This document shows, piece by piece, positions 23,637 to 31,475 of a stretch of 64,000 nucleotides of DNA; the first letter of the stretch is position 1, and the number at the start of each line of letters is the position of its first letter. The translations under genes were made by a program, and so were the position numbers. The notes under the pieces were generated by a model that made no database searches, was not told where the DNA came from, and was given only the letters and a program-made list of their open reading frames with translations. Source of the stretch: Escherichia coli (GTDB lineage: Bacteria > Pseudomonadota > Gammaproteobacteria > Enterobacterales > Enterobacteriaceae); NCBI RefSeq assembly GCF_017348835.2, contig NZ_CP071375.1. One strand, written 5' to 3'.

Positions 23637-25136
23637 TTAGCTCGCCGTTTCAGGCTTAAACACAATTTCCTGTTTTTCTTCATCTTCCTCGACGACTGGC
23701 GCAGTGCTGTGAATTTCAGCAACGCGTTTGCGCACACCAAACCAGCCTATAACCAGCAGAATACCGATAATCGGCAGCGCCGCGATAGTATAAGTCCCGT
23801 TCGGGTAATCGAACGCCATCAGCACAAGGACACTCAGTAAAAACAGTAATGTCAGCCAGGAAGTGAAGGGCGCGCCAGGCAGTTTAAAACTGACATCCGC
23901 TGCTTTGCCTTCTTTAATCGCTTTACGCAGGCGCATCTGGCACACGATGATAAACGCCCATGAAGCGATGATTCCCAGCGACGCGAAGTTCAACACAATC
24001 TCAAATACGCGCGACGGCACCAGATAGTTGAGGAATACGCCGACGACATACACAACCAGTGTCGCCAGAATCCCGGCATACGGCACATGCTGACGACTCA
24101 TTTTCGCCATAAAACTCGGTGCGGAACCGCCCATCGCCATTGAGCGCAGAATACGTCCGGTGCAGTACAGACCTGAATTCAGGCTGGAGAGGGCAGCGGT
24201 CAGCACCACAATGTTCATAATGCTGCCGATATATGGCACACCCAGTTTAGAGAAAAACGTCACGAACGGACTTTGCCCCGCCTGATACGCGCTCCACGGC
24301 AATAACATAACCAGCAACACCACGGAGCCGACGTAAAACAGGCCAATACGCCAAATCACACTGTTAATCGCTTTAGGTACCATGGTCTGCGGATCTTTAC
24401 ATTCTCCGGCAGCTGTACCCACCATTTCAATGGAGGCAAAAGCAAACACTACGCCCTGAATCAACACCAGCGCAGGCAGCAAACCGTGGGGGAAGAAGCC
24501 GCCATTATCGGTGATTAAATGAAAGCCTGTGGTGTTGCCATCCAGCGGCTGACCACTACCGAGGAACACTGTACCTACGACCAAAAAGGTCACAATGGCG
24601 AGCACTTTAATAAGCGCAAACCAGAACTCCATCTCCGCAAACCATTTCACACCGATCATATTCATGGTGCCAACGATGGTAAGTGCAGCGAGCGCAAAGA
24701 CCCACTGCGGCACGCCGCCAAACGCACCCCAGTAATGCATATACAGAGCGACGGCGGTAATATCAACAATCCCCGTCATCGCCCAGTTGATGAAGTACAT
24801 CCAGCCAGCAACATAAGCGGCTTTCTCACCCAAAAACTCACGGGCATAAGAGACAAAACTGCCACTGGAAGGGCGGTGTAGCACCAGCTCACCCAATGCA
24901 CGCAGAATAAAAAACGAAAACAAGCCACAAATTAAATAAACCAGTGCCAGTGCTGGACCCGCCATTTGCAGTCGGGCTCCTGCACCTAAAAACAAGCCGG
25001 TGCCAATCGCGCCGCCAATGGCGATCATCTGTACCTGGCGATTGCCCATCGCTTTGTGATACCCCTCTTCGTGGGCATTAAGCCAGCGGCGTTTCGCGGC
25101 GTGTTGATCTGAAGTGTCGGTGTCGTGTTTACTCAT
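23637..25136 (-). CDS. ansP: AnsP L-asparagine permease (APC family)
   Basis: Start placed at MSKHDTDTSDQHAAKRRW; amino-acid permease fold. Confidence 0.9.
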   Translation of the reverse strand: MSKHDTDTSDQHAAKRRWLNAHEEGYHKAMGNRQVQMIAIGGAIGTGLFLGAGARLQMAGPALALVYLICGLFSFFILRALGELVLHRPSSGSFVSYAREFLGEKAAYVAGWMYFINWAMTGIVDITAVALYMHYWGAFGGVPQWVFALAALTIVGTMNMIGVKWFAEMEFWFALIKVLAIVTFLVVGTVFLGSGQPLDGNTTGFHLITDNGGFFPHGLLPALVLIQGVVFAFASIEMVGTAAGECKDPQTMVPKAINSVIWRIGLFYVGSVVLLVMLLPWSAYQAGQSPFVTFFSKLGVPYIGSIMNIVVLTAALSSLNSGLYCTGRILRSMAMGGSAPSFMAKMSRQHVPYAGILATLVVYVVGVFLNYLVPSRVFEIVLNFASLGIIASWAFIIVCQMRLRKAIKEGKAADVSFKLPGAPFTSWLTLLFLLSVLVLMAFDYPNGTYTIAALPIIGILLVIGWFGVRKRVAEIHSTAPVVEEDEEKQEIVFKPETAS

Positions 25137-26086
25137 TGCTCTCCCTGATTGCTTTAATGAAAAAGTCATATAAGTTGCCATGAACAATGTTTATTCATCC
25201 TGGCGATGATAGTTATCACCATTATTCTTTATGGGTATAAAACTATCGGCGCAGAATCCTACCTTTTATCGTGTAACGATGCAAAATAATCCCGCTATAC
25301 ATATGTGGGGATGAAGGCGGCGGCGACAAAATAGCAACCTGATGAAATTATGACGGAAACAACCACTATTAGTTTGATGATACCCGACTGCAGTCCAACT
25401 CTTTCGCCACTCGTTCGTCGCTCTGAAAGCCTGTGGTTGCAGTGGACACTGGTGTGGTTGGTCTTCGCTGTTTATCATTGAATAGTGAGGGGCTAGCACA
25501 TGACGGGTTTTAGGGGTAATACGCCAAATACCAATACAATTGCTGATTAGATGTGCCAGTTACCGACGTTACAGAAAGTGCCAAAAAATGTAAGAGGGAT
25601 GTCGGGTGATAAACGCGCTATTGCCCAACAGGAGTTTCTGGAATTAGTCCTGTTCCATGGTCATTACAACTCTTAAAACATTACTTCAATATAATTAATG
25701 TGTATATCATTCTCGATATTAATTTATGAAGTGAATTTGATATATTCCGAATTCTTAATTTACATTACTAATGTATGGGGCATAACGTTAAGATTGATAT
25801 GTGCAGATTAAGATATCAGGGTGGGGCGGTAGCGTTTACAGATATTAATCAATTGATGAGAATTATGTTAACTGCGTAATCATTTTCATCGGTTATTGAT
25901 ATTGAAGATAGATTAATAAAAATGCTGATAATTAATGTTAAGAAATAGAAATGGGAAACGTTGATAACTTGCTTTGATTTCATTTTCTATGAAGATGATG
26001 CCATCAATACTGTATAAAGTAAGAATGTTGAAAATCAAAGAGCGTTTGTGTTTTATCTGAAAGATATTATATCCAGGGGAAAGGAT

Positions 26087-26617
26087 ATGTCTTTAAGGAG
26101 AATGACATCTGGTGAATTAACATTGGCTAGATCGATTTTTGAGAATACAATTGATTATAGCAAGGTATGGATCCACAATGAAAAATATCTGCCTGGTCAA
26201 GGGGAAAGAACAGCGATGACCCCAAACGGGGAAATGTATTATCCTGATGCTGTTTATAGTTCAGATTATTCATCGCAAACAATGCCTGGTGATCGTGAAA
26301 CAGTAGCAGGTGCTTCTCACTTGTTTATTCATGAAATGATGCATGTTTGGCAATATCAGAAAGGGTATGCAGTTAAGTTGCGTGGTTTATTTTCCTGGGC
26401 GGCAAATTATCATTACGTTCTTAATTTACAGTCAATTTCTTCTTATTCCATGGAACAACAAGCATCTATAGTTGCTGATTATTGGCTATTGATTAACTAT
26501 GGACTGGTGGCTGATTTGGCAAATGTTAACTATGTAGGTGATACAACTGAATCAGTTAACACTCTATCGGAAAAATACAAAAAGGTGCTTAATTTATTTC
26601 CTGCGGGTGTCATATGA
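26087..26617 (+). CDS. DUF4157-like putative zinc metallopeptidase (HExxH); candidate polymorphic-toxin / T6SS effector domain protein
   Basis: ORF with HLFIHEMMHVWQYQ motif; start at ATG 26087 after AGGGGAAAGGA; lies in AT-rich DNA; absent from K-12 at this locus as recalled. Confidence 0.6.
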   Translation: MSLRRMTSGELTLARSIFENTIDYSKVWIHNEKYLPGQGERTAMTPNGEMYYPDAVYSSDYSSQTMPGDRETVAGASHLFIHEMMHVWQYQKGYAVKLRGLFSWAANYHYVLNLQSISSYSMEQQASIVADYWLLINYGLVADLANVNYVGDTTESVNTLSEKYKKVLNLFPAGVI

Positions 26618-26970
26618 AGAGGTTCTTTTTGTTTTTCTTTTTGTCGGGATGCACTGTTGGTGATTATGTTCGCCCATTGTTACCCGGTAATGTATATTTA
26701 CAAGATGGACGGGTTTGTTCAAAACCAGACGATGGAGATATTATTTCAAATTATATTTTATATGAAGGTAAATATGGCAATGCAATAAAGCTGAAAAGAG
26801 TAACAGGTCAGTTCGATCCCGTATGTATTGACATAAGTGAGCTATCTCCAGATGTTATTTATATCGGGCAATATATGCTCTCCTCCGGAAGTAAAAAAGA
26901 ATACTATGGTTTTAGGATAATTAGATCCGGAGTACGTATTTTAAGACTTGATGATAACCATATCAAATAA
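26614..26970 (+). CDS. small lipoprotein, candidate cognate immunity protein
   Basis: 118-aa ORF, signal peptide plus lipobox FFLSGC; ATG overlaps upstream stop (ATGA). Confidence 0.6.
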   Translation: MKRFFLFFFLSGCTVGDYVRPLLPGNVYLQDGRVCSKPDDGDIISNYILYEGKYGNAIKLKRVTGQFDPVCIDISELSPDVIYIGQYMLSSGSKKEYYGFRIIRSGVRILRLDDNHIK

Positions 26971-27190
26971 CAGATTAAAAATTTTATTAGTTTCATTAAT
27001 GTGCTTTAGGTGAATGTTTTCACCAGGTTAACATGACGGTGCATTCTTCAAGGCATATATGGTTGATAGTATCTTCAGTAGCTCGCATAAGTATTGAGAT
27101 GTTTTACGCCAGTTACGAATATATTGCATATTTTATTCTCTGTAAGATTTCTTATTAGCACTTAGCCATTTCTAGTTAAAAGGATTAATT

Positions 27191-29185
27191 ATGAGTTTTG
27201 CAGCTACAGATTATCCATCCGGCGCACTAACTGGATCGGGTACACATAACGTGACTTTGAGCGGCAGCGCAGTTCCTGATGGAATGTTACTGTTTGCAAG
27301 CTTAGGGGGTACAGAAACAGTAGGGGAACTATTTACTTATTCTATTAAATTAAAAACTCCTGACATCCTGAACCTGGGCTATGTTTCCCCTGCCGCAAAC
27401 CTGCAGCTCAAACCGATGGTGGGCAAAGATCTGTGCGTCCATATCGAACTGGATGGCGGCGGAAAACGTTATATCAGCGGGCTGGTGACGGCGGCACGCG
27501 TGGCTGGTCATCAAGGACGTTCGGTGGTGTATGAACTGCGGCTCGAACCGTGGTTAAAAATACTGACCCACACTAGTGACTACAAAGCGTTTCAGAATAA
27601 AAACGTGGTGGACATCCTGGATGAGGTACTGGATGAGTATCCCTGGCCAGTGGAAAAACGGCTGGTGGAAAATTATCCGACTCGCGCCTGGCAGGTGCAG
27701 TACGGTGAAACAGATTTCGCTTTTATTCAGCGCCTGATGCAGGAGTGGGGTATCTACTGGTGGTTTGAGCACAGCGAGAACAGTCACACGTTAGTGCTGG
27801 CTGATGCCATTAATGTCCACAAGGCATGCGCAGATTCGCCGCTGGTGTGTTATTACCAGAAAGGGCTGAAACTGGACAAGGAGTTTATCCATACCATCAC
27901 AGCAAATGAAAGTCTGCGCAGCGGACAGTGGGTGCTGAATGATTTCGACTTTATGAAGCCGCGTTCACTGCTGAAGAGCACCGTGGCTAATCCGCGTGAA
28001 ACCGGCCTTGCTGAATATGAGCACTACGAATGGCCGGGAGATTACTTCACAAAGAGTGAAGGTGAAATGCTGACACGCATTCGCATGGAAGAACAGCGTA
28101 GCCCCGGTAGTCGGGTACAGGGCAGCGGCAATATTCGTACCCTGATGACAGGTTTTTCCTTCACCCTGGAAAACTATCCGACAGCCGAAGTGAACCGGGA
28201 ATATCTGCTGGTACAGACCACGCTATTTATACAGGACAATGCGCAACACAGCGGCCAGGAGCAGCATTTCTCTTACTCAACCAGTTTTGAACTGCATCCC
28301 ACCAGCGAAGTTTACCGCCCACAACGAACCCTGAGTAAACCCCACACTAAAGGCCCGCAGAGCGCCATCGTCACCGGCCCGGCAGGGCAGGAAATCTGGA
28401 CAGATAAATATGGCCGGGTGAAAGTTCAGTTTGGCTGGGATCGTTACGGTAAGAATGACGAAAACAGCTCCTGCTGGGTCCGTGTCAGTTATCCGTGGGC
28501 GGGTAAAGGATTCGGTGGCATTCAGATCCCGCGCATTGGTCAGGAAGTACTGGTGGATTTCAAAAACGGTGATCCGGATTTACCGATAATCGTTGGGCGT
28601 ACCTACAACCAGGACACCATGCCACCGTGGGGACTACCGGGCGCAGCGACGCAAAGCGGGTTTTACAGCCATACTATCGGCGGCGGCCCAACCAATGCCA
28701 ACGCACTACGTTTTGAGGATAAACCTGGCGGTGAAGAGGTCTGGCTACATGCCGAAAAAGATCAGCGGATTGAAGTAAATAATAATGAAAGCCACTGGGT
28801 GGGCAATAATCGCCTTAAAGTCATTGATAAAACAGAAACAGCGATAATTGGTGAGGAACGTTCTCTTACAGTTCAGATGGATGATACCTCCCTTGCCGGA
28901 CAAAATAAAACGATTCAGGCCGTACAGAATTTACGCCTTGCTGCGGGAGATTCCATAATTCTTAGTTGTGGGAAAACTATCCTGCAAATGACCAGTGACG
29001 GAATATTTAATATAACCTGTAAGAATTTTAATATTACTGCAACAGAAAATGGAAAGATAAATACACAATCAGGTCAGCTTGATTTAAATATGAATGACAG
29101 GGCTGCAGATATACTTCCGCCTGGAGCATCGGAAAAAACAGCCCTTCAGTTGGCGATAGACGTCGCCTTCATGACTAAAAAATAA
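27191..29185 (+). CDS. vgrG: VgrG type VI secretion spike protein (orphan, Rhs-associated)
   Basis: 664-aa ORF with gp27/gp5-like VgrG signatures ([45 protein letters not shown]). Confidence 0.88.
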
Positions 29186-29235: not shown

Positions 29236-29688
29236 ATGACGGAGTATTATCTCAATGAAACTGTTGTAACTTTTCCCGGGAATATTATTCAGGACAGCAC
29301 TATTAATATGCTGCGCCTCAGCGATCCCGACGCTGCACTCATTATCAGTCGGGGCCAGATGCAGGAAGGAGACGAATTAGCCTCCCAGATTGAACAGCAA
29401 ATGAAAAAACTGGAGAAACAGGTAAAGGATCTTCACTACACGCCCGTTCAGGTAACACGGGTAGGGATTAATGACGGTGAACAAGGGCTGGAAATACAGA
29501 GCCAGTTTCTCAGGGGTAACGAGCAGGTGTACCAGTGTCAGGTGGCATTTGTGTTGCCGGGTGAGCGAGTCATGATGGCCTTCACCTACGCCAGAACCAC
29601 ACCGCTGACCCCGGCAGATATGACGCGCTGGGCTGAAATTAAAAAGAATCTGCGCTTCAGGATGCGGCAGGAAGCCAGGACGAATTAA
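29236..29688 (+). CDS. DUF1795-family Eag chaperone for prePAAR effectors
   Basis: 150-aa ORF between vgrG and the prePAAR-Rhs gene, the canonical chaperone position. Confidence 0.7.
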   Translation: MTEYYLNETVVTFPGNIIQDSTINMLRLSDPDAALIISRGQMQEGDELASQIEQQMKKLEKQVKDLHYTPVQVTRVGINDGEQGLEIQSQFLRGNEQVYQCQVAFVLPGERVMMAFTYARTTPLTPADMTRWAEIKKNLRFRMRQEARTN

Positions 29689-29706: not shown

Positions 29707-31077
29707 ATGGAAGAGGCATTCTGGGCGGCAAGACAGGGTGATGCCCTGCTGCATACGTCGTTTATGGCAGATGTGCTGGGGGCGGTGCTGGAGGTGGCCG
29801 CAAATGTCGTTATTGATGCCCTCATTGTCGGCACAACCTCGTTACTGGCGACGTCAGTGGGGATCACGATGGGGTGCACGGCCGTCGTGCTGACCGGTTT
29901 TGTGGCGGGTGTGGCGATGGTGTACACCGGCGTGACAGAAAAGGTCAGCGAAGCCTGTTCAGCCCTCGCAAATATGCTTTTCCCGCCTCAGATTGAAGGT
30001 TACATCCTCACCGGCTCTGGTGACACATGGATCAACAGCAAACCTGCCGCGCGGGCAGCGGCTACTGCGGCATCGCGGCAGGACATTGAGGCGCAGGACG
30101 CGCAGGCGAAGGCGGAACAGGAAGAAGCGCAGCGTCAGGAGGATGCCAGAACGTTCCGGGATGTGGCCGGGGAATATCTGGAAATGGCGGGGGCCATAGC
30201 CCTGGCGGTTAACCCGGTGACAGGGCCTGTGCTGATGTCCCGGGCGCTGCACGACCAGCTCAGCACGGAAGAAGGGCGTTCTGAAATGGTGGATGGCGTG
30301 ACACATTTTGTGTCGGAACTATGGCAGCCCACTGTGGCCAGTGCGGCCCCGGGCTCCACCCCGACCCCTGACGATAAAATCGACTGCCATAAACATCCTT
30401 CCTCACTGACGCAGTTTCTCGCACAAAAAAAAGCCGCCTTTCTGGATGCCCCCCTGGGAACGGCCCTTAACCTGCTGAGTCCGGACGGTATGCTGGAAAC
30501 CGCCTTTCAGGGAGTGAATGCGGTTATTGGCAGCATCAGTAATCTGTTCAAAGGCGATGACGAGCCGCCCGCAGCGGAATATATCGCGGAAGGCGCGCGG
30601 GATGTGCGTATCAACAGCCAGCCGGCGGCACGCAGCGGGGCACGCTGTACCTGCGAGGCCAGGGTGGTGAATGAGCCGGGGAACGGGGCGTTTGTGTCAC
30701 CGGATGTGCGCATTGGCGGTCCGTTACTGGTGGCCAGGGATATCAGAAGCGGCAGGTCGCAGATAACCCTGGTGGCAACCGTGGCGCTGATGTTTCTTCG
30801 CCCGGGCAAAATGCTTTCTAAAATCGCCTGTTTTGCTGCCAGTGTCGGGATGAGCATGCTGACGCAGAAGGCCACCAGTGCCCTTCCGCATCCGGTCAAT
30901 GCCGCCACCGGGGCCAAATACCTGGCCGATGACGATGACTTCGATTTCAGTCTGCCGGGCCACTTTCCGCTGGACTGGCAGCGCGTGTACAGCAGTCGTG
31001 ACGAACGCACGGAAGGAATGTTTGGTCAGGGCTGGAGTGTGATGTATGAAGTCAGCCTCGTGCGCACACCGGGTATC
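29707..31077 (+). pseudogene. Rhs polymorphic toxin, N-terminal fragment (prePAAR, TM helices, PAAR, start of Rhs core) truncated by deletion
   Basis: prePAAR motif AARQGDALLH at residues 7-16; hydrophobic helices; PAAR-region homology (HPVNAATGAKYL...FGQGWS); reading frame then runs into nhoA-derived sequence. Confidence 0.75.
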
Positions 31078-31475
31078 GGTTGTTGCAGGAGGGTGATGAT
31101 TGGGTGTTGCAGTTTAATCATCATCAGCATTGGCAGTCGATGTACCGTTTTGATCTCTGCGAGCAGCAACAAAGCGATTATGTGATGGGCAATTTCTGGT
31201 CGGCGCACTGGCCGCAGTCGCATTTTCGCCATCATTTGCTGATGTGCCGCCATTTGCCGGACGGCGGCAAGCTGACACTGACCAATTTTCATTTTACCCA
31301 TTATGAAAATGGGCACGCGGTGGAGCAGCGAAATCTACCGGATGTGGCGTCGTTATATGCTGTGATGCAAGAACAGTTTAGTCTGGGCGTGGACGATGCG
31401 AAACATGGCTTTACCGTGGATGAGTTGGCGCTGGTGATGGCGGCGTTTGATACGCACCCGGAGGCGGGAAAATAA
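31078..31475 (+). pseudogene. nhoA: nhoA (arylamine N-acetyltransferase) 3' fragment lacking 5' half
   Basis: Translation LLQEGDDWVLQFNHHQHWQSMYRFD...THPEAGK matches the NhoA C-terminal region as recalled; no N-terminus or start codon present. Confidence 0.75.

Follow-up and report, generated by a model that had tools for sequence, protein, structure and literature searches.

A 64,000-nucleotide stretch of Escherichia coli DNA (hereafter the window), 99.995% identical to strain PE164, carries two overlapping genes that very probably encode a Tpe/Tpi-type T6SS effector-immunity module whose effector can no longer be delivered in that strain. The reading draws on homology to validated pairs and on conserved synteny, and it upholds the central proposal of the first-pass annotation, a periplasm-acting zincin toxin paired with a lipoprotein antidote in a vgrG-eag-Rhs island. 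The same annotation knew of no characterized function for such a pair. In this it was mistaken, since for the relatives Tpe1/Tpi1, VgrG2b C-ter/PA0261 and SARI_02727/SARI_02726 there are a crystal structure and toxicity, immunity and competition data. The pair belongs to this already characterized family and reveals no new mechanism. The main outcome is instead a correction of annotation: in RefSeq the zincin of 176 aa appears as "type IV secretion protein Rhs" and the 118-aa partner as "hypothetical protein", whereas the two very probably form a Tpe/Tpi-type T6SS effector-immunity pair.

Organization of the island beside ansP

The stop codon of the effector gene and the start codon of the lipoprotein gene share an ATGA at positions 26614-26617, and the RefSeq CDS in PE164 are the same two genes with identical starts (Table 1). 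GC content is 0.33-0.36 over positions 25500-27000 versus about 0.50 in the flanks, and 220 nt separate the stop of the lipoprotein gene from the start of vgrG. ORFs, RefSeq CDS and GC content agree with the arrangement originally described, in which an HExxH ORF overlaps, through ATGA, an LSGC lipoprotein gene in AT-rich DNA at that distance upstream of vgrG. The suggestion that the island replaces yncG/yncH also holds, K-12 carrying the order ansP-yncG-yncH-rhsE' at the same position. The PE164 chromosome as a whole has a large inversion relative to K-12. Judging by the conservation of their products, both ORFs are real genes and not chance ORFs, because homologs reach E = 3.5e-111 and 3162 relative clusters are found at E ≤ 1e-3.

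Table 1. Features of the effector-immunity locus, in window coordinates
Feature	Position	Strand	Details
AT-rich non-coding island leader	25500..26086		GC about 0.33; from composition
tpe-like effector gene	26087..26617	+	ATG start, TGA stop; 176 aa; ORF and RefSeq CDS
HExxH codons H82-E83-M-M-H86 (HEMMH)	26330..26344	+	zinc-binding/catalytic motif, read from sequence
E123 codon, invariant MEQQ motif	26453..26455	+	predicted third zinc ligand
tpi-like lipoprotein gene	26614..26970	+	ATG start, TAA stop; 118 aa; predicted outer-membrane lipoprotein immunity protein
Lipobox L10-S11-G12-C13 (LSGC) codons	26641..26652	+	read from sequence
vgrG, T6SS spike gene, intact	27191..29185	+	664 aa; ORF and RefSeq annotation
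eag / DcrB-family (DUF1795) chaperone gene for PAAR-Rhs	29236..29688	+	RefSeq "DcrB-related protein"; PF08786 on Citrobacter ortholog
Truncated PAAR-Rhs remnant	29707..31185	+	492-aa ORF; ORF list and RefSeq pseudogene annotations

Downstream of the pair, the order vgrG, eag, PAAR-Rhs was correctly recognized at first pass, but the Rhs member of this module is a 492-aa truncated remnant. It has been joined to the 3' end of nhoA by a deletion whose junction lies at about 31065-31075, and RefSeq labels the pseudogenes "DUF6531... missing C-terminus" and "arylamine N-acetyltransferase... missing N-terminus". An intact 1547-aa Rhs and its immunity gene are found in strain PapRG-06-5.

No recognizable gene or RNA family was found in the leader (25500-26086). 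Within it, a promoter scan counted promoter-like sites at a number not above the shuffled expectation, and tblastn of VgrG detected no vgrG remnant 5' of the effector gene of the kind seen in Citrobacter. A search of Rfam over 25000-27400 returned a single sub-threshold, snoRNA-like chance match (E = 0.32), and the interval from the lipoprotein gene to vgrG revealed no terminator-like site.

The HExxH protein and its lipoprotein partner

Searching the 176-aa protein against PDB chains with phmmer yielded a sole match, 6h56_A (E = 1.8e-20, residues 4-138). PDB 6H56 is the effector domain of VgrG2b from P. aeruginosa, determined by crystallography. Structure prediction, a check for a zincin fold that the first-pass annotation had suggested, led to the same entry: the AF2 model has a pLDDT of 90.2, and the only significant Foldseek matches in the PDB were two 6h56 chains (E = 2.9e-9, probability 1.00, TM 0.64), the next match having E = 1.4. 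Identity to the VgrG2b domain is about 30%, and identity to the S. arizonae SARI_02727 ortholog is 44% (E = 1e-48).

The predicted active site is conserved throughout the family. H82, E83, H86 and E123 are invariant across 34 members (alignment A1) and align residue-for-residue with H935, E936, H939 and E983 of VgrG2b, so that HEMMH is matched with HEMTH and E123 with the E of "NIEQQ" in 6h56. The 37-residue spacing between H86 and E123, together with 7 gap positions, corresponds to the 44 residues between H939 and E983. The protein has no signal peptide. On the evidence of these alignments and the model, it is a predicted free-standing thermolysin-like zinc metallopeptidase (gluzincin) and a homolog of the VgrG2b C-terminal domain. 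Pfam scans of this protein and of the lipoprotein returned nothing significant, and PADLOC defence models gave no match. In the E. coli/Citrobacter clade, an extra segment of ~10 residues (TMPGDRETVAG) lies immediately N-terminal to the catalytic helix.

The first-pass reading of the protein as DUF4157-like stands as a statement of resemblance and fails as one of membership. PF13699 (DUF4157, now eCIS_core) did not match the 176-aa protein even at E ≤ 10. Across the 34 family members it gave no match at E ≤ 1e-3 and 19 at E ≤ 0.1 (best 4.9e-3), and a Pfam scan of the 34 homologs produced sub-threshold matches to eCIS_core and DUF6782 only. What the two families have in common is a short, HExxH-centered zincin core, with weak matches in over half of the members. 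As a term for mere resemblance "DUF4157-like" is fair, because Wood et al. (2019; PMC6899460) record that the family is "frequently annotated as DUF4157". The weak matches and this annotation history would suit a DUF4157/eCIS-type cargo toxin that uses an extracellular contractile injection system in place of a T6SS. We nevertheless consider that route extremely improbable. In addition to the failure of PF13699 at stringent thresholds, no eCIS genes are annotated within the 42 kb around the pair; the neighbors here and in related loci are vgrG, hcp, tss genes, eag and PAAR-Rhs, and the best match in both sequence and structure is a T6SS spike domain.

Outer-membrane sorting is predicted for the 118-aa partner because the Thr at +2 is no Lol-avoidance residue. 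Comparison of the lipoprotein with immunity families by profile HMM, also proposed at first pass, favored an immunity function: NCBIfam NF045617, "putative T6SS immunity periplasmic lipoprotein", matched at E = 3e-8, though at 33.8 bits, under the curated cutoff of 43. Among other partners, the Citrobacter ortholog scores 31.1 bits and those of Enterobacter and Kosakonia 101-102 bits. Pfam DUF7480 did not match the E. coli protein. With respect to NF045617/DUF7480, then, the lipoprotein lies below the score cutoff and possesses the lipoprotein signal, the position 3' of a Tpe gene and the conserved cysteines, C13, C35 and C71 being shared by the E. coli, Citrobacter, Enterobacter and Kosakonia partners.

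More distant relationships were recovered by jackhmmer. Started from the window lipoprotein, it reached 60 of the 83 genes located directly 3' of Tpe homologs, the S. arizonae partner included, and 0 of 83 shuffled decoys; this propagation, free of decoy matches, was obtained at the true database size and did not occur at Z = 1e6, a harsh database size. A word-index homolog search from the lipoprotein found E. coli alleles only, and in a pairwise BLASTP comparison the S. arizonae immunity protein showed no significant similarity to it (E = 0.64). The E. coli/Citrobacter subclade is thus peculiar both in the loop before the catalytic helix and in an immunity protein that is unusually short (118 aa) and has diverged beyond pairwise recognition.

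Taken together, the pair displays the marks of Tpe/Tpi modules: sequence homology, HExxH with a distal Glu, the 6H56 fold, a downstream gene for an envelope-targeted product and association with T6SS spike or tube genes. By homology, the effector, which lacks a signal peptide, would be synthesized in the cytoplasm and loaded for T6SS export, either onto the VgrG whose gene follows the pair or into the Hcp tube, and would then be injected into the periplasm of neighboring Gram-negative cells. There, its HExxH...E active site may cause envelope damage, which in characterized relatives appears as mid-cell membrane blebbing and then lysis; release of lipoproteins from membranes is the activity suggested for the family. 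The 118-aa outer-membrane lipoprotein would face the periplasm and neutralize its cognate toxin by binding.

Genomic context and the fate of the T6SS

Gene order in other genomes is consistent with this assignment. An ORF with a lipobox immediately follows the homolog in 66 of 83 loci, and at least 10 other species share the order tpe-tpi-vgrG, with the three genes on one strand. In Citrobacter farmeri, the order tpe-tpi-vgrG-eag-Rhs lies inside a tssM-tagF cluster. Nine other loci have hcp within 500 nt of the homolog, and in other lineages the metallopeptidase domain is fused to VgrG-sized proteins. We describe T6SS linkage as frequent and not universal because, of 49 free-standing homologs for which 15 kb or more of context was available, 31 show no detectable T6SS gene within 10 kb.

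The many homologs far from T6SS genes might be taken to indicate a common housekeeping or stress protease paired with a lipoprotein, or a prophage-borne lysis accessory, as might a Kosakonia pair situated directly after a prophage holin-lysozyme-Rz cassette and the three phage records that contain a homolog. We find such a role very improbable. Phage records seldom contain homologs (3 of 50,697), no PHROG family matches, and the validated relatives are T6SS-dependent antibacterial toxins. Moreover, only 230 of 5426 complete E. coli genomes (about 4%) have the pair, here in AT-rich accessory DNA. Comparative genomics of the locus, which the first-pass annotation had recommended, therefore identifies an accessory pair and not a common housekeeping gene.

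Genomes with the pair or with SPI-6-type tssC number 236, with 350 places between them; therefore, in raw genome counts that ignore kinship, about 110 have both, about 120 have the pair only and at most 6 have tssC only. The common O157-type tssC is present in at most about 12 pair-bearing genomes. From these counts, the pair appears to occur almost exclusively with the rare SPI-6-like T6SS, and we suggest that the tpe-tpi-vgrG-eag-PAAR-Rhs accessory island beside ansP accompanies this system, located at aspV.

Strain MIN6 has an intact SPI-6-like cluster at aspV. At the same locus, PE164 retains only tssF-tssG-tssA, a vgrG pseudogene and Rhs fragments. Neither O157-type nor SPI-6-type tssC was detected in PE164, the two chimeric searches each giving one place only and no second match. 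A complete T6SS core set was not found in this strain by a scan of O157-type tssC, SPI-6-type tssC and the aspV locus, and the paper describing PE164 makes no mention of a T6SS. The pair is probably stranded in PE164, with an effector that is not deliverable, because the T6SS is cut to tssF-tssG-tssA and the adjacent Rhs is truncated.

An active weapon in PE164 would call for an overlooked T6SS, such as a cluster of i4b, a third T6SS type of E. coli, or dispersed genes, working with the intact vgrG at 27191. We judge this unlikely. None of the effector, immunity, vgrG and eag ORFs is disrupted, and the PE164 scan covered two tssC types and one chromosomal locus, both of which leave some room for it; against it, the cognate SPI-6-like cluster is clearly deleted, the two tssC searches agree, and the adjoining Rhs toxin has decayed too. 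Loss of the machinery also extends beyond PE164, as SPI-6-type tssC is absent from about half of the pair-bearing genomes and the island has been eroded by IS elements in other strains. If the module is indeed a stranded Tpe/Tpi pair, only its immunity gene could still be useful in PE164, providing protection from T6SS-positive relatives with the same toxin.

It is doubtful, though conceivable, that the E. coli/Citrobacter subclade is functionally distinct, either in having a periplasmic target different from that of VgrG2b/SARI_02727 or in a T6SS-independent role that keeps the intact pair in the ~120 E. coli genomes without the cognate sheath gene. A T6SS-independent role, if true, could consist of standing immunity against T6SS-positive relatives or of an addiction-like function. 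For a Tpe/Tpi module of the known type, the E. coli distribution shows clearly how an accessory effector island can outlast its secretion apparatus: roughly half of the carriers no longer have the sheath gene. This bears on the persistence of orphan immunity genes. Finding the target of this effector family should also be tractable in E. coli, which has a native member and natural carriers both with and without the T6SS.

Comparison with characterized systems

The VgrG2b C-ter of P. aeruginosa is toxic in the periplasm, and this toxicity is abolished by E936A, H935A or H939A; PA0261, which shows DsbA dependence, binds and neutralizes it (PMC6899460). The E. coli pair shares with this system the domain family (E = 1.8e-20), the fold (TM 0.64), the aligned HExxH and distal Glu ligands, a small gene for an envelope-targeted immunity protein directly 3' and, by homology, action in the periplasm. 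The two differ in architecture, VgrG2b carrying the domain as a C-terminal extension of a VgrG spike whereas the E. coli protein is free-standing at 176 aa. They differ as well in sequence, given the identity of about 30% and the pre-helix segment peculiar to the E. coli/Citrobacter clade. PA0261 is a soluble periplasmic protein, unlike the E. coli lipoprotein; the enterobacterial immunity proteins are described as outer-membrane lipoproteins, with the Salmonella ortholog located in the outer membrane (PMC6899460).

Closer still is the SARI_02727/SARI_02726 pair of S. enterica subsp. arizonae (SPI-20), which was validated in 2026 by competition and PelB-directed toxicity (PMC12992299). Its effector is likewise free-standing (189 aa, 44% identity), an overlapping lipoprotein immunity gene lies downstream, and the tpe-tpi-vgrG order is the same. 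The Salmonella pair lies within a complete T6SS cluster, whereas that of E. coli occupies a satellite island beside ansP. The immunity proteins also contrast: the Salmonella protein has 154 aa, belongs to DUF7480 and scores well over the NF045617 cutoff, and the E. coli protein has 118 aa, no Pfam match and 33.8 bits. Cross-protection between them appears unlikely because their pairwise similarity is not significant.

Tpe1/Tpi1 of Acinetobacter baylyi (ACIAD0053/0054; Ringel et al. 2017, as cited in PMC6899460) is the namesake of the family. As described in that citing paper, it resembles the E. coli pair in consisting of a free-standing cargo metallopeptidase with a downstream immunity gene and periplasmic action, and it departs from it in that a transmembrane helix holds Tpi1 in the inner membrane, in contrast to the lipid anchor predicted for the E. 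coli partner.

A broader parallel is with Tae4/Tai4 and other small Hcp-loaded periplasmic effectors of SPI-6-like systems, which are similarly ~20 kDa in size, lack a signal and adjoin a gene for a periplasmic immunity protein. Tae4/Tai4 is encoded by the same T6SS type in E. coli MIN6, and several Tpe homologs adjoin hcp. The fold and chemistry are unrelated, however, Tae4 being an amidase and the effector described here a predicted zinc peptidase.

Identity of the HExxH protein

The two overlapping genes next to ansP are a toxin-immunity pair of the already known Tpe/Tpi family (T6SS gluzincin effectors of the VgrG2b C-terminal type and their immunity proteins), and the SPI-6-like T6SS of this pair has largely been deleted in PE164, the E. 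coli strain of the window. The first-pass annotation had described both ORFs, the span they cover, the HExxH motif, the ATGA in which the stop of ORF A (effector, tpe) overlaps the start of ORF B (lipoprotein, tpi), and the LSGC lipobox exactly as they read in the sequence, and homology to validated relatives indicates that it also read the biology essentially correctly. Its remark that the pair had no characterised function did not hold, as the family already has a crystal structure (6h56) and functional validation (PMC6899460, PMC12992299).

Coordinates of the pair and associated features (window positions unless a locus is named)
Feature	Position	Strand	Detail
ORF A (effector, tpe)	ATG 26087 - TGA 26617	+	176 aa, read from sequence
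HEMMH codons of ORF A	26330-26344	+	read from sequence
TMPGDRETVAG segment of ORF A	~26276-26308		residues 64-74
ORF B (lipoprotein, tpi)	ATG 26614 - 26970	+	118 aa; lipobox L-S-G-C, residues 10-13
AT-rich stretch	25500-27000		GC 0.33-0.36; ~0.50 in both flanks
Region of the cut-off PAAR-Rhs gene fused to nhoA	29707-31475
Rhs-nhoA junction	~31065-31075
espR1 and leucine-rich-repeat pseudogene	~40991-42975	-	PE164
Citrobacter farmeri vgrG fragment	L002, 7000-8594		326 aa
Kosakonia pairs	L006, 8001-8958; L007, 8001-8958
Truncated effector gene, strain JML285	L018, 5001-6409		first 130 nt retained
PE164 aspV locus	L014, chromosome 3973000-4022999

With ORF A as a single query, Pfam returned nothing significant (DUF6782 alone at E=0.29, DUF4157 absent), and NCBIfam and PADLOC scans gave no match. 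Among all PDB chains, a sequence search found a single match, 6h56, titled "Effector domain of Pseudomonas aeruginosa VgrG2b" (E=1.8e-20, query residues 4-138). Residues H82, E83, H86 and E123-Q124-Q125 are invariant across A1, our alignment of 34 effector homologs, and the HMMER alignment places them on two VgrG2b motifs, HEMTH and NIEQQ. The spacing also agrees: 37 residues of ORF A plus 7 gap positions equal the 44 residues from H939 to E983 of VgrG2b, E983 being the third zinc ligand in the crystal structure (PMC6899460). An AlphaFold2 model built from A1 was confident (pLDDT 90.2, pTM 0.89); a Foldseek search of the PDB was significant only for the two chains of 6h56 (E=2.9e-9, probability 1.00, TM 0.64), with the runner-up at E=1.4. 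The catalytic residues and fold of Tpe are thus all conserved in ORF A. The protein is 44% identical to the SARI_02727 ortholog of the S. arizonae type strain (E=1e-48), and it lacks a Sec signal, since a hydrophobic N-terminus is absent. Just before the catalytic helix, ORF A carries an extra segment of ~10 residues, TMPGDRETVAG, which the sequences from E. coli, Citrobacter and the closest metagenomic homologs have in common and the other 29 homologs of A1 lack.

The DUF4157 likeness proposed initially was partly borne out. When the 34 homologs were compared one by one with PF13699 (now eCIS_core), 19 matched at E<=0.1 and none at E<=1e-3. At the level of sequence, the resemblance is real for the zincin core but does not amount to membership in the Pfam family. 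Proteins of this effector family are "frequently annotated as DUF4157" (PMC6899460). RefSeq annotation of the region surrounding the pair lists no eCIS-like genes.

The lipoprotein partner

A Pfam scan of ORF B gave no match. NCBIfam model NF045617, "putative T6SS immunity periplasmic lipoprotein", did match at E=3e-8, but its 33.8 bits fall short of the curated 43-bit cutoff, as do the 31.1 bits of the Citrobacter ortholog; effector partners from Enterobacter and Kosakonia score 101-102 bits and contain DUF7480. Sorting of lipoproteins by the Lol pathway is governed by the residue at position +2, and the Thr found there in ORF B predicts transfer to the outer membrane. The lipobox cysteine, C35 and C71 are kept across the E. 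coli, Citrobacter, Enterobacter and Kosakonia partners, which fits the disulfide and DsbA dependence of PA0261, the immunity protein of VgrG2b (PMC6899460).

Because pairwise BLAST of ORF B against the Salmonella immunity protein was not significant (E=0.64), we checked homology by gene position, using the gene directly downstream of effector relatives at 83 loci. A lipobox is present in 66 of these 83 genes, and jackhmmer seeded with the window lipoprotein reached 60 of them, the S. arizonae partner included, and 0 of 83 shuffled decoys. The partners of one VgrG-fused and one N-terminally extended relative are lipoproteins too, with weak similarity to NF045617. The NF045617 similarity, the conserved cysteines and the positional jackhmmer test are the grounds on which we assign ORF B, as a diverged and short member, to the Tpi-type immunity family. 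Such divergence is typical of immunity proteins, and here suggests pair-specific protection.

The island and its relatives in other genera

The AT-rich setting and the vgrG gene (664 aa) beginning 220 nt past the lipoprotein stop were confirmed by composition and ORF positions, and the island indeed stands in place of yncG/yncH (ansP-yncG-yncH-rhsE' in K-12). A scan of the window found no terminator-like site between the lipoprotein gene and vgrG, so co-transcription of the two may be possible. Beyond vgrG lie a gene of the Eag/DcrB family and an ORF for PAAR-Rhs. The vgrG-eag-Rhs order described earlier is present, but Rhs is only a 492-aa stump that a deletion has fused to the 3' end of nhoA; the intact island of strain PapRG-06-5 encodes an Rhs of 1547 aa and its immunity gene. 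The deletion took the Rhs core, toxin tip, immunity gene, symE, pptA and yddH, all present in PapRG-06-5. Over 41,991 nt the window is 99.995% identical to the PE164 chromosome, where RefSeq calls both CDS and names ORF A "type IV secretion protein Rhs" and ORF B "hypothetical protein". The name given to ORF A, met in RefSeq/NCBI records generally, is a misnomer, as this 176-aa zincin is neither type IV nor Rhs; VgrG-fused relatives are its probable source.

Searching 1.84 billion representative proteins with a profile yielded 3162 clusters at E<=1e-3 (233 at E<=1e-30), in three architectures: the domain alone (~170-200 aa), after an N-terminal extension (280-450 aa), or ending a VgrG-sized protein (825-1280 aa), one of which is a confirmed VgrG within a T6SS cluster. 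Published forms are likewise fused to VgrG, fused to PAAR or free-standing, the last exemplified by S. arizonae SARI_02727 and A. baylyi Tpe1 (PMC6899460). Species-representative genomes hold at least 529 effector relatives, often several per genome, and homologs occur on 61 plasmid and 3 phage records. The three phage records are from 50,697 searched, and one protein is labelled "similar to VgrG protein" (Pseudomonas phage vB_PaeM_GXNNB6). Several genomes carry at least three diverged effector copies, each followed by a lipoprotein gene of its own, such as Cedecea neteri (L019/L047/L067), Serratia plymuthica (L023/L033/L060) and Kosakonia cowanii (L035/L070/L074).

Citrobacter farmeri (67% identity) arranges its genes as tssM-tagF-...-truncated vgrG-tpe-tpi-vgrG-eag-PAAR-Rhs, so the E. 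coli island is the distal part of such a T6SS cluster. In C. farmeri 20 nt separate the truncated vgrG from the effector gene downstream of it, and residues 87-299 of this fragment match window VgrG residues 4-216 at 82% identity, suggesting that recombination among vgrG copies may shuffle these modules; no vgrG remnant is present upstream of the effector in the E. coli window. The tpe-tpi-vgrG order, with all three genes on one strand, recurs in S. arizonae, Lelliottia, Pseudescherichia, Pluralibacter, Cedecea and Enterobacter. At such loci of other genera vgrG starts ~590-880 nt past the effector stop and hcp lies ~2.8 kb upstream. The partner is a lipoprotein of a known immunity family, and the tpe-tpi-vgrG layout is conserved.

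For 49 free-standing homologs whose available context spans at least 15 kb, hcp lies within 500 nt in nine and vgrG within 1 kb in six; around 31 of them no T6SS gene was detectable up to 10 kb away. In various Enterobacterales hcp is within 500 nt of the pair and vgrG distant (L024, L027, L038, L041, L050, L054, L062, L064), a hint that some free-standing members may be Hcp-associated cargo. The E. hormaechei pair adjoins a remnant tssB-tssC cluster. Kosakonia pairs directly follow a prophage holin-lysozyme-Rz lysis cassette, close to an RNase_A_bac/CdiI_2 toxin-immunity module, and look like prophage cargo; a PHROG scan gave no match.

Distribution in E. coli and loss of the T6SS

The pair occurs in 230 of 5426 complete E. 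coli genomes, always on the chromosome and at 90-100% identity. To see which T6SS co-occurs with it, we searched with chimeras of the island and a 900-nt piece of tssC. When that piece came from the common O157/aspV-type gene (strain Sakai), 3068 genomes matched something and only 12 records matched in two places, so pair-bearing genomes almost never hold this T6SS. PE164, a hybrid aEPEC/ExPEC pig isolate (O108:H9), holds a decayed SPI-6-like T6SS at its aspV locus, where nothing is left but tssF-tssG-tssA, a pseudogene of vgrG and several Rhs fragments. The Rhs fragments come with orphan toxin/immunity genes (AHH domain, imm11). Just 170 genomes have a tssF-G-A block of the PE164 type. In pair-bearing MIN6 this block sits in a complete SPI-6-like cluster (tssA-G-F-E, tagJ, tagK, clpV, tssB, tssC, tae4-tai4, hcp, tssJ-K-L-M, tagF, vgrG).

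The chimera with MIN6 tssC matched a union of 236 genomes in 350 places, which with 230 pair carriers gives ~110 genomes with both, ~120 with the pair alone and no more than 6 with tssC alone (odds ratio ~800, uncorrected for phylogeny). By these counts the island belongs, as an accessory module, to a T6SS that is rare in E. coli. PE164 matched in one place in each chimeric search; the sheath gene is gone from it and from about half of the pair carriers. The pair is coupled to the SPI-6-like T6SS, and PE164 has lost that system.

In some strains the island itself erodes through IS elements: in JML285 the truncated effector gene abuts an ISAs1/ISEc1 element, and CREC-2 and A31 have IS903B or ISAs1 insertions within the pair. 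Unrelated to the pair, PE164 carries espR1 (a T3SS effector) with an adjacent leucine-rich-repeat pseudogene and, beyond them, a frameshifted ompC-like porin pseudogene (RefSeq). Its ydcO-fdnG segment, which includes the window, runs in the K-12 direction and the 1.08 Mb and 3.86 Mb regions run opposite, indicating that PE164, compared with K-12, has a large inversion around the terminus.

By homology to studied relatives, the effector would have a zinc-dependent peptidase active site, be delivered by a T6SS and act in the periplasm, where the cognate downstream envelope protein, presumably at the outer membrane, would neutralise it. Conserved adjacency suggests loading on the downstream VgrG; the 20-kDa size and the hcp-adjacent copies suggest, alternatively, loading in the Hcp tube. 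In PE164, we infer, immunity is the only function still able to matter.

For the C-terminal domain of VgrG2b, Wood et al. 2019 (PMC6899460) describe a thermolysin-like gluzincin that the H2-T6SS secretes and that is toxic only in the periplasm, where it causes mid-cell membrane blebbing and then lysis. The substitutions E936A, H935A and H939A each inactivate the domain, and PA0261, the product of a small downstream gene, binds and neutralises it; lipoprotein release from membranes was seen in vitro (PMC6899460). Wood et al., who proposed the name Tpe/Tpi, found a small ORF downstream of the effector domain to be invariable and the Enterobacteriaceae immunity proteins to be outer-membrane lipoproteins (PMC6899460). 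SARI_02727/SARI_02726 has been validated in competition assays and through the toxicity of a PelB-directed form, which was partially rescued (PMC12992299, 2026).
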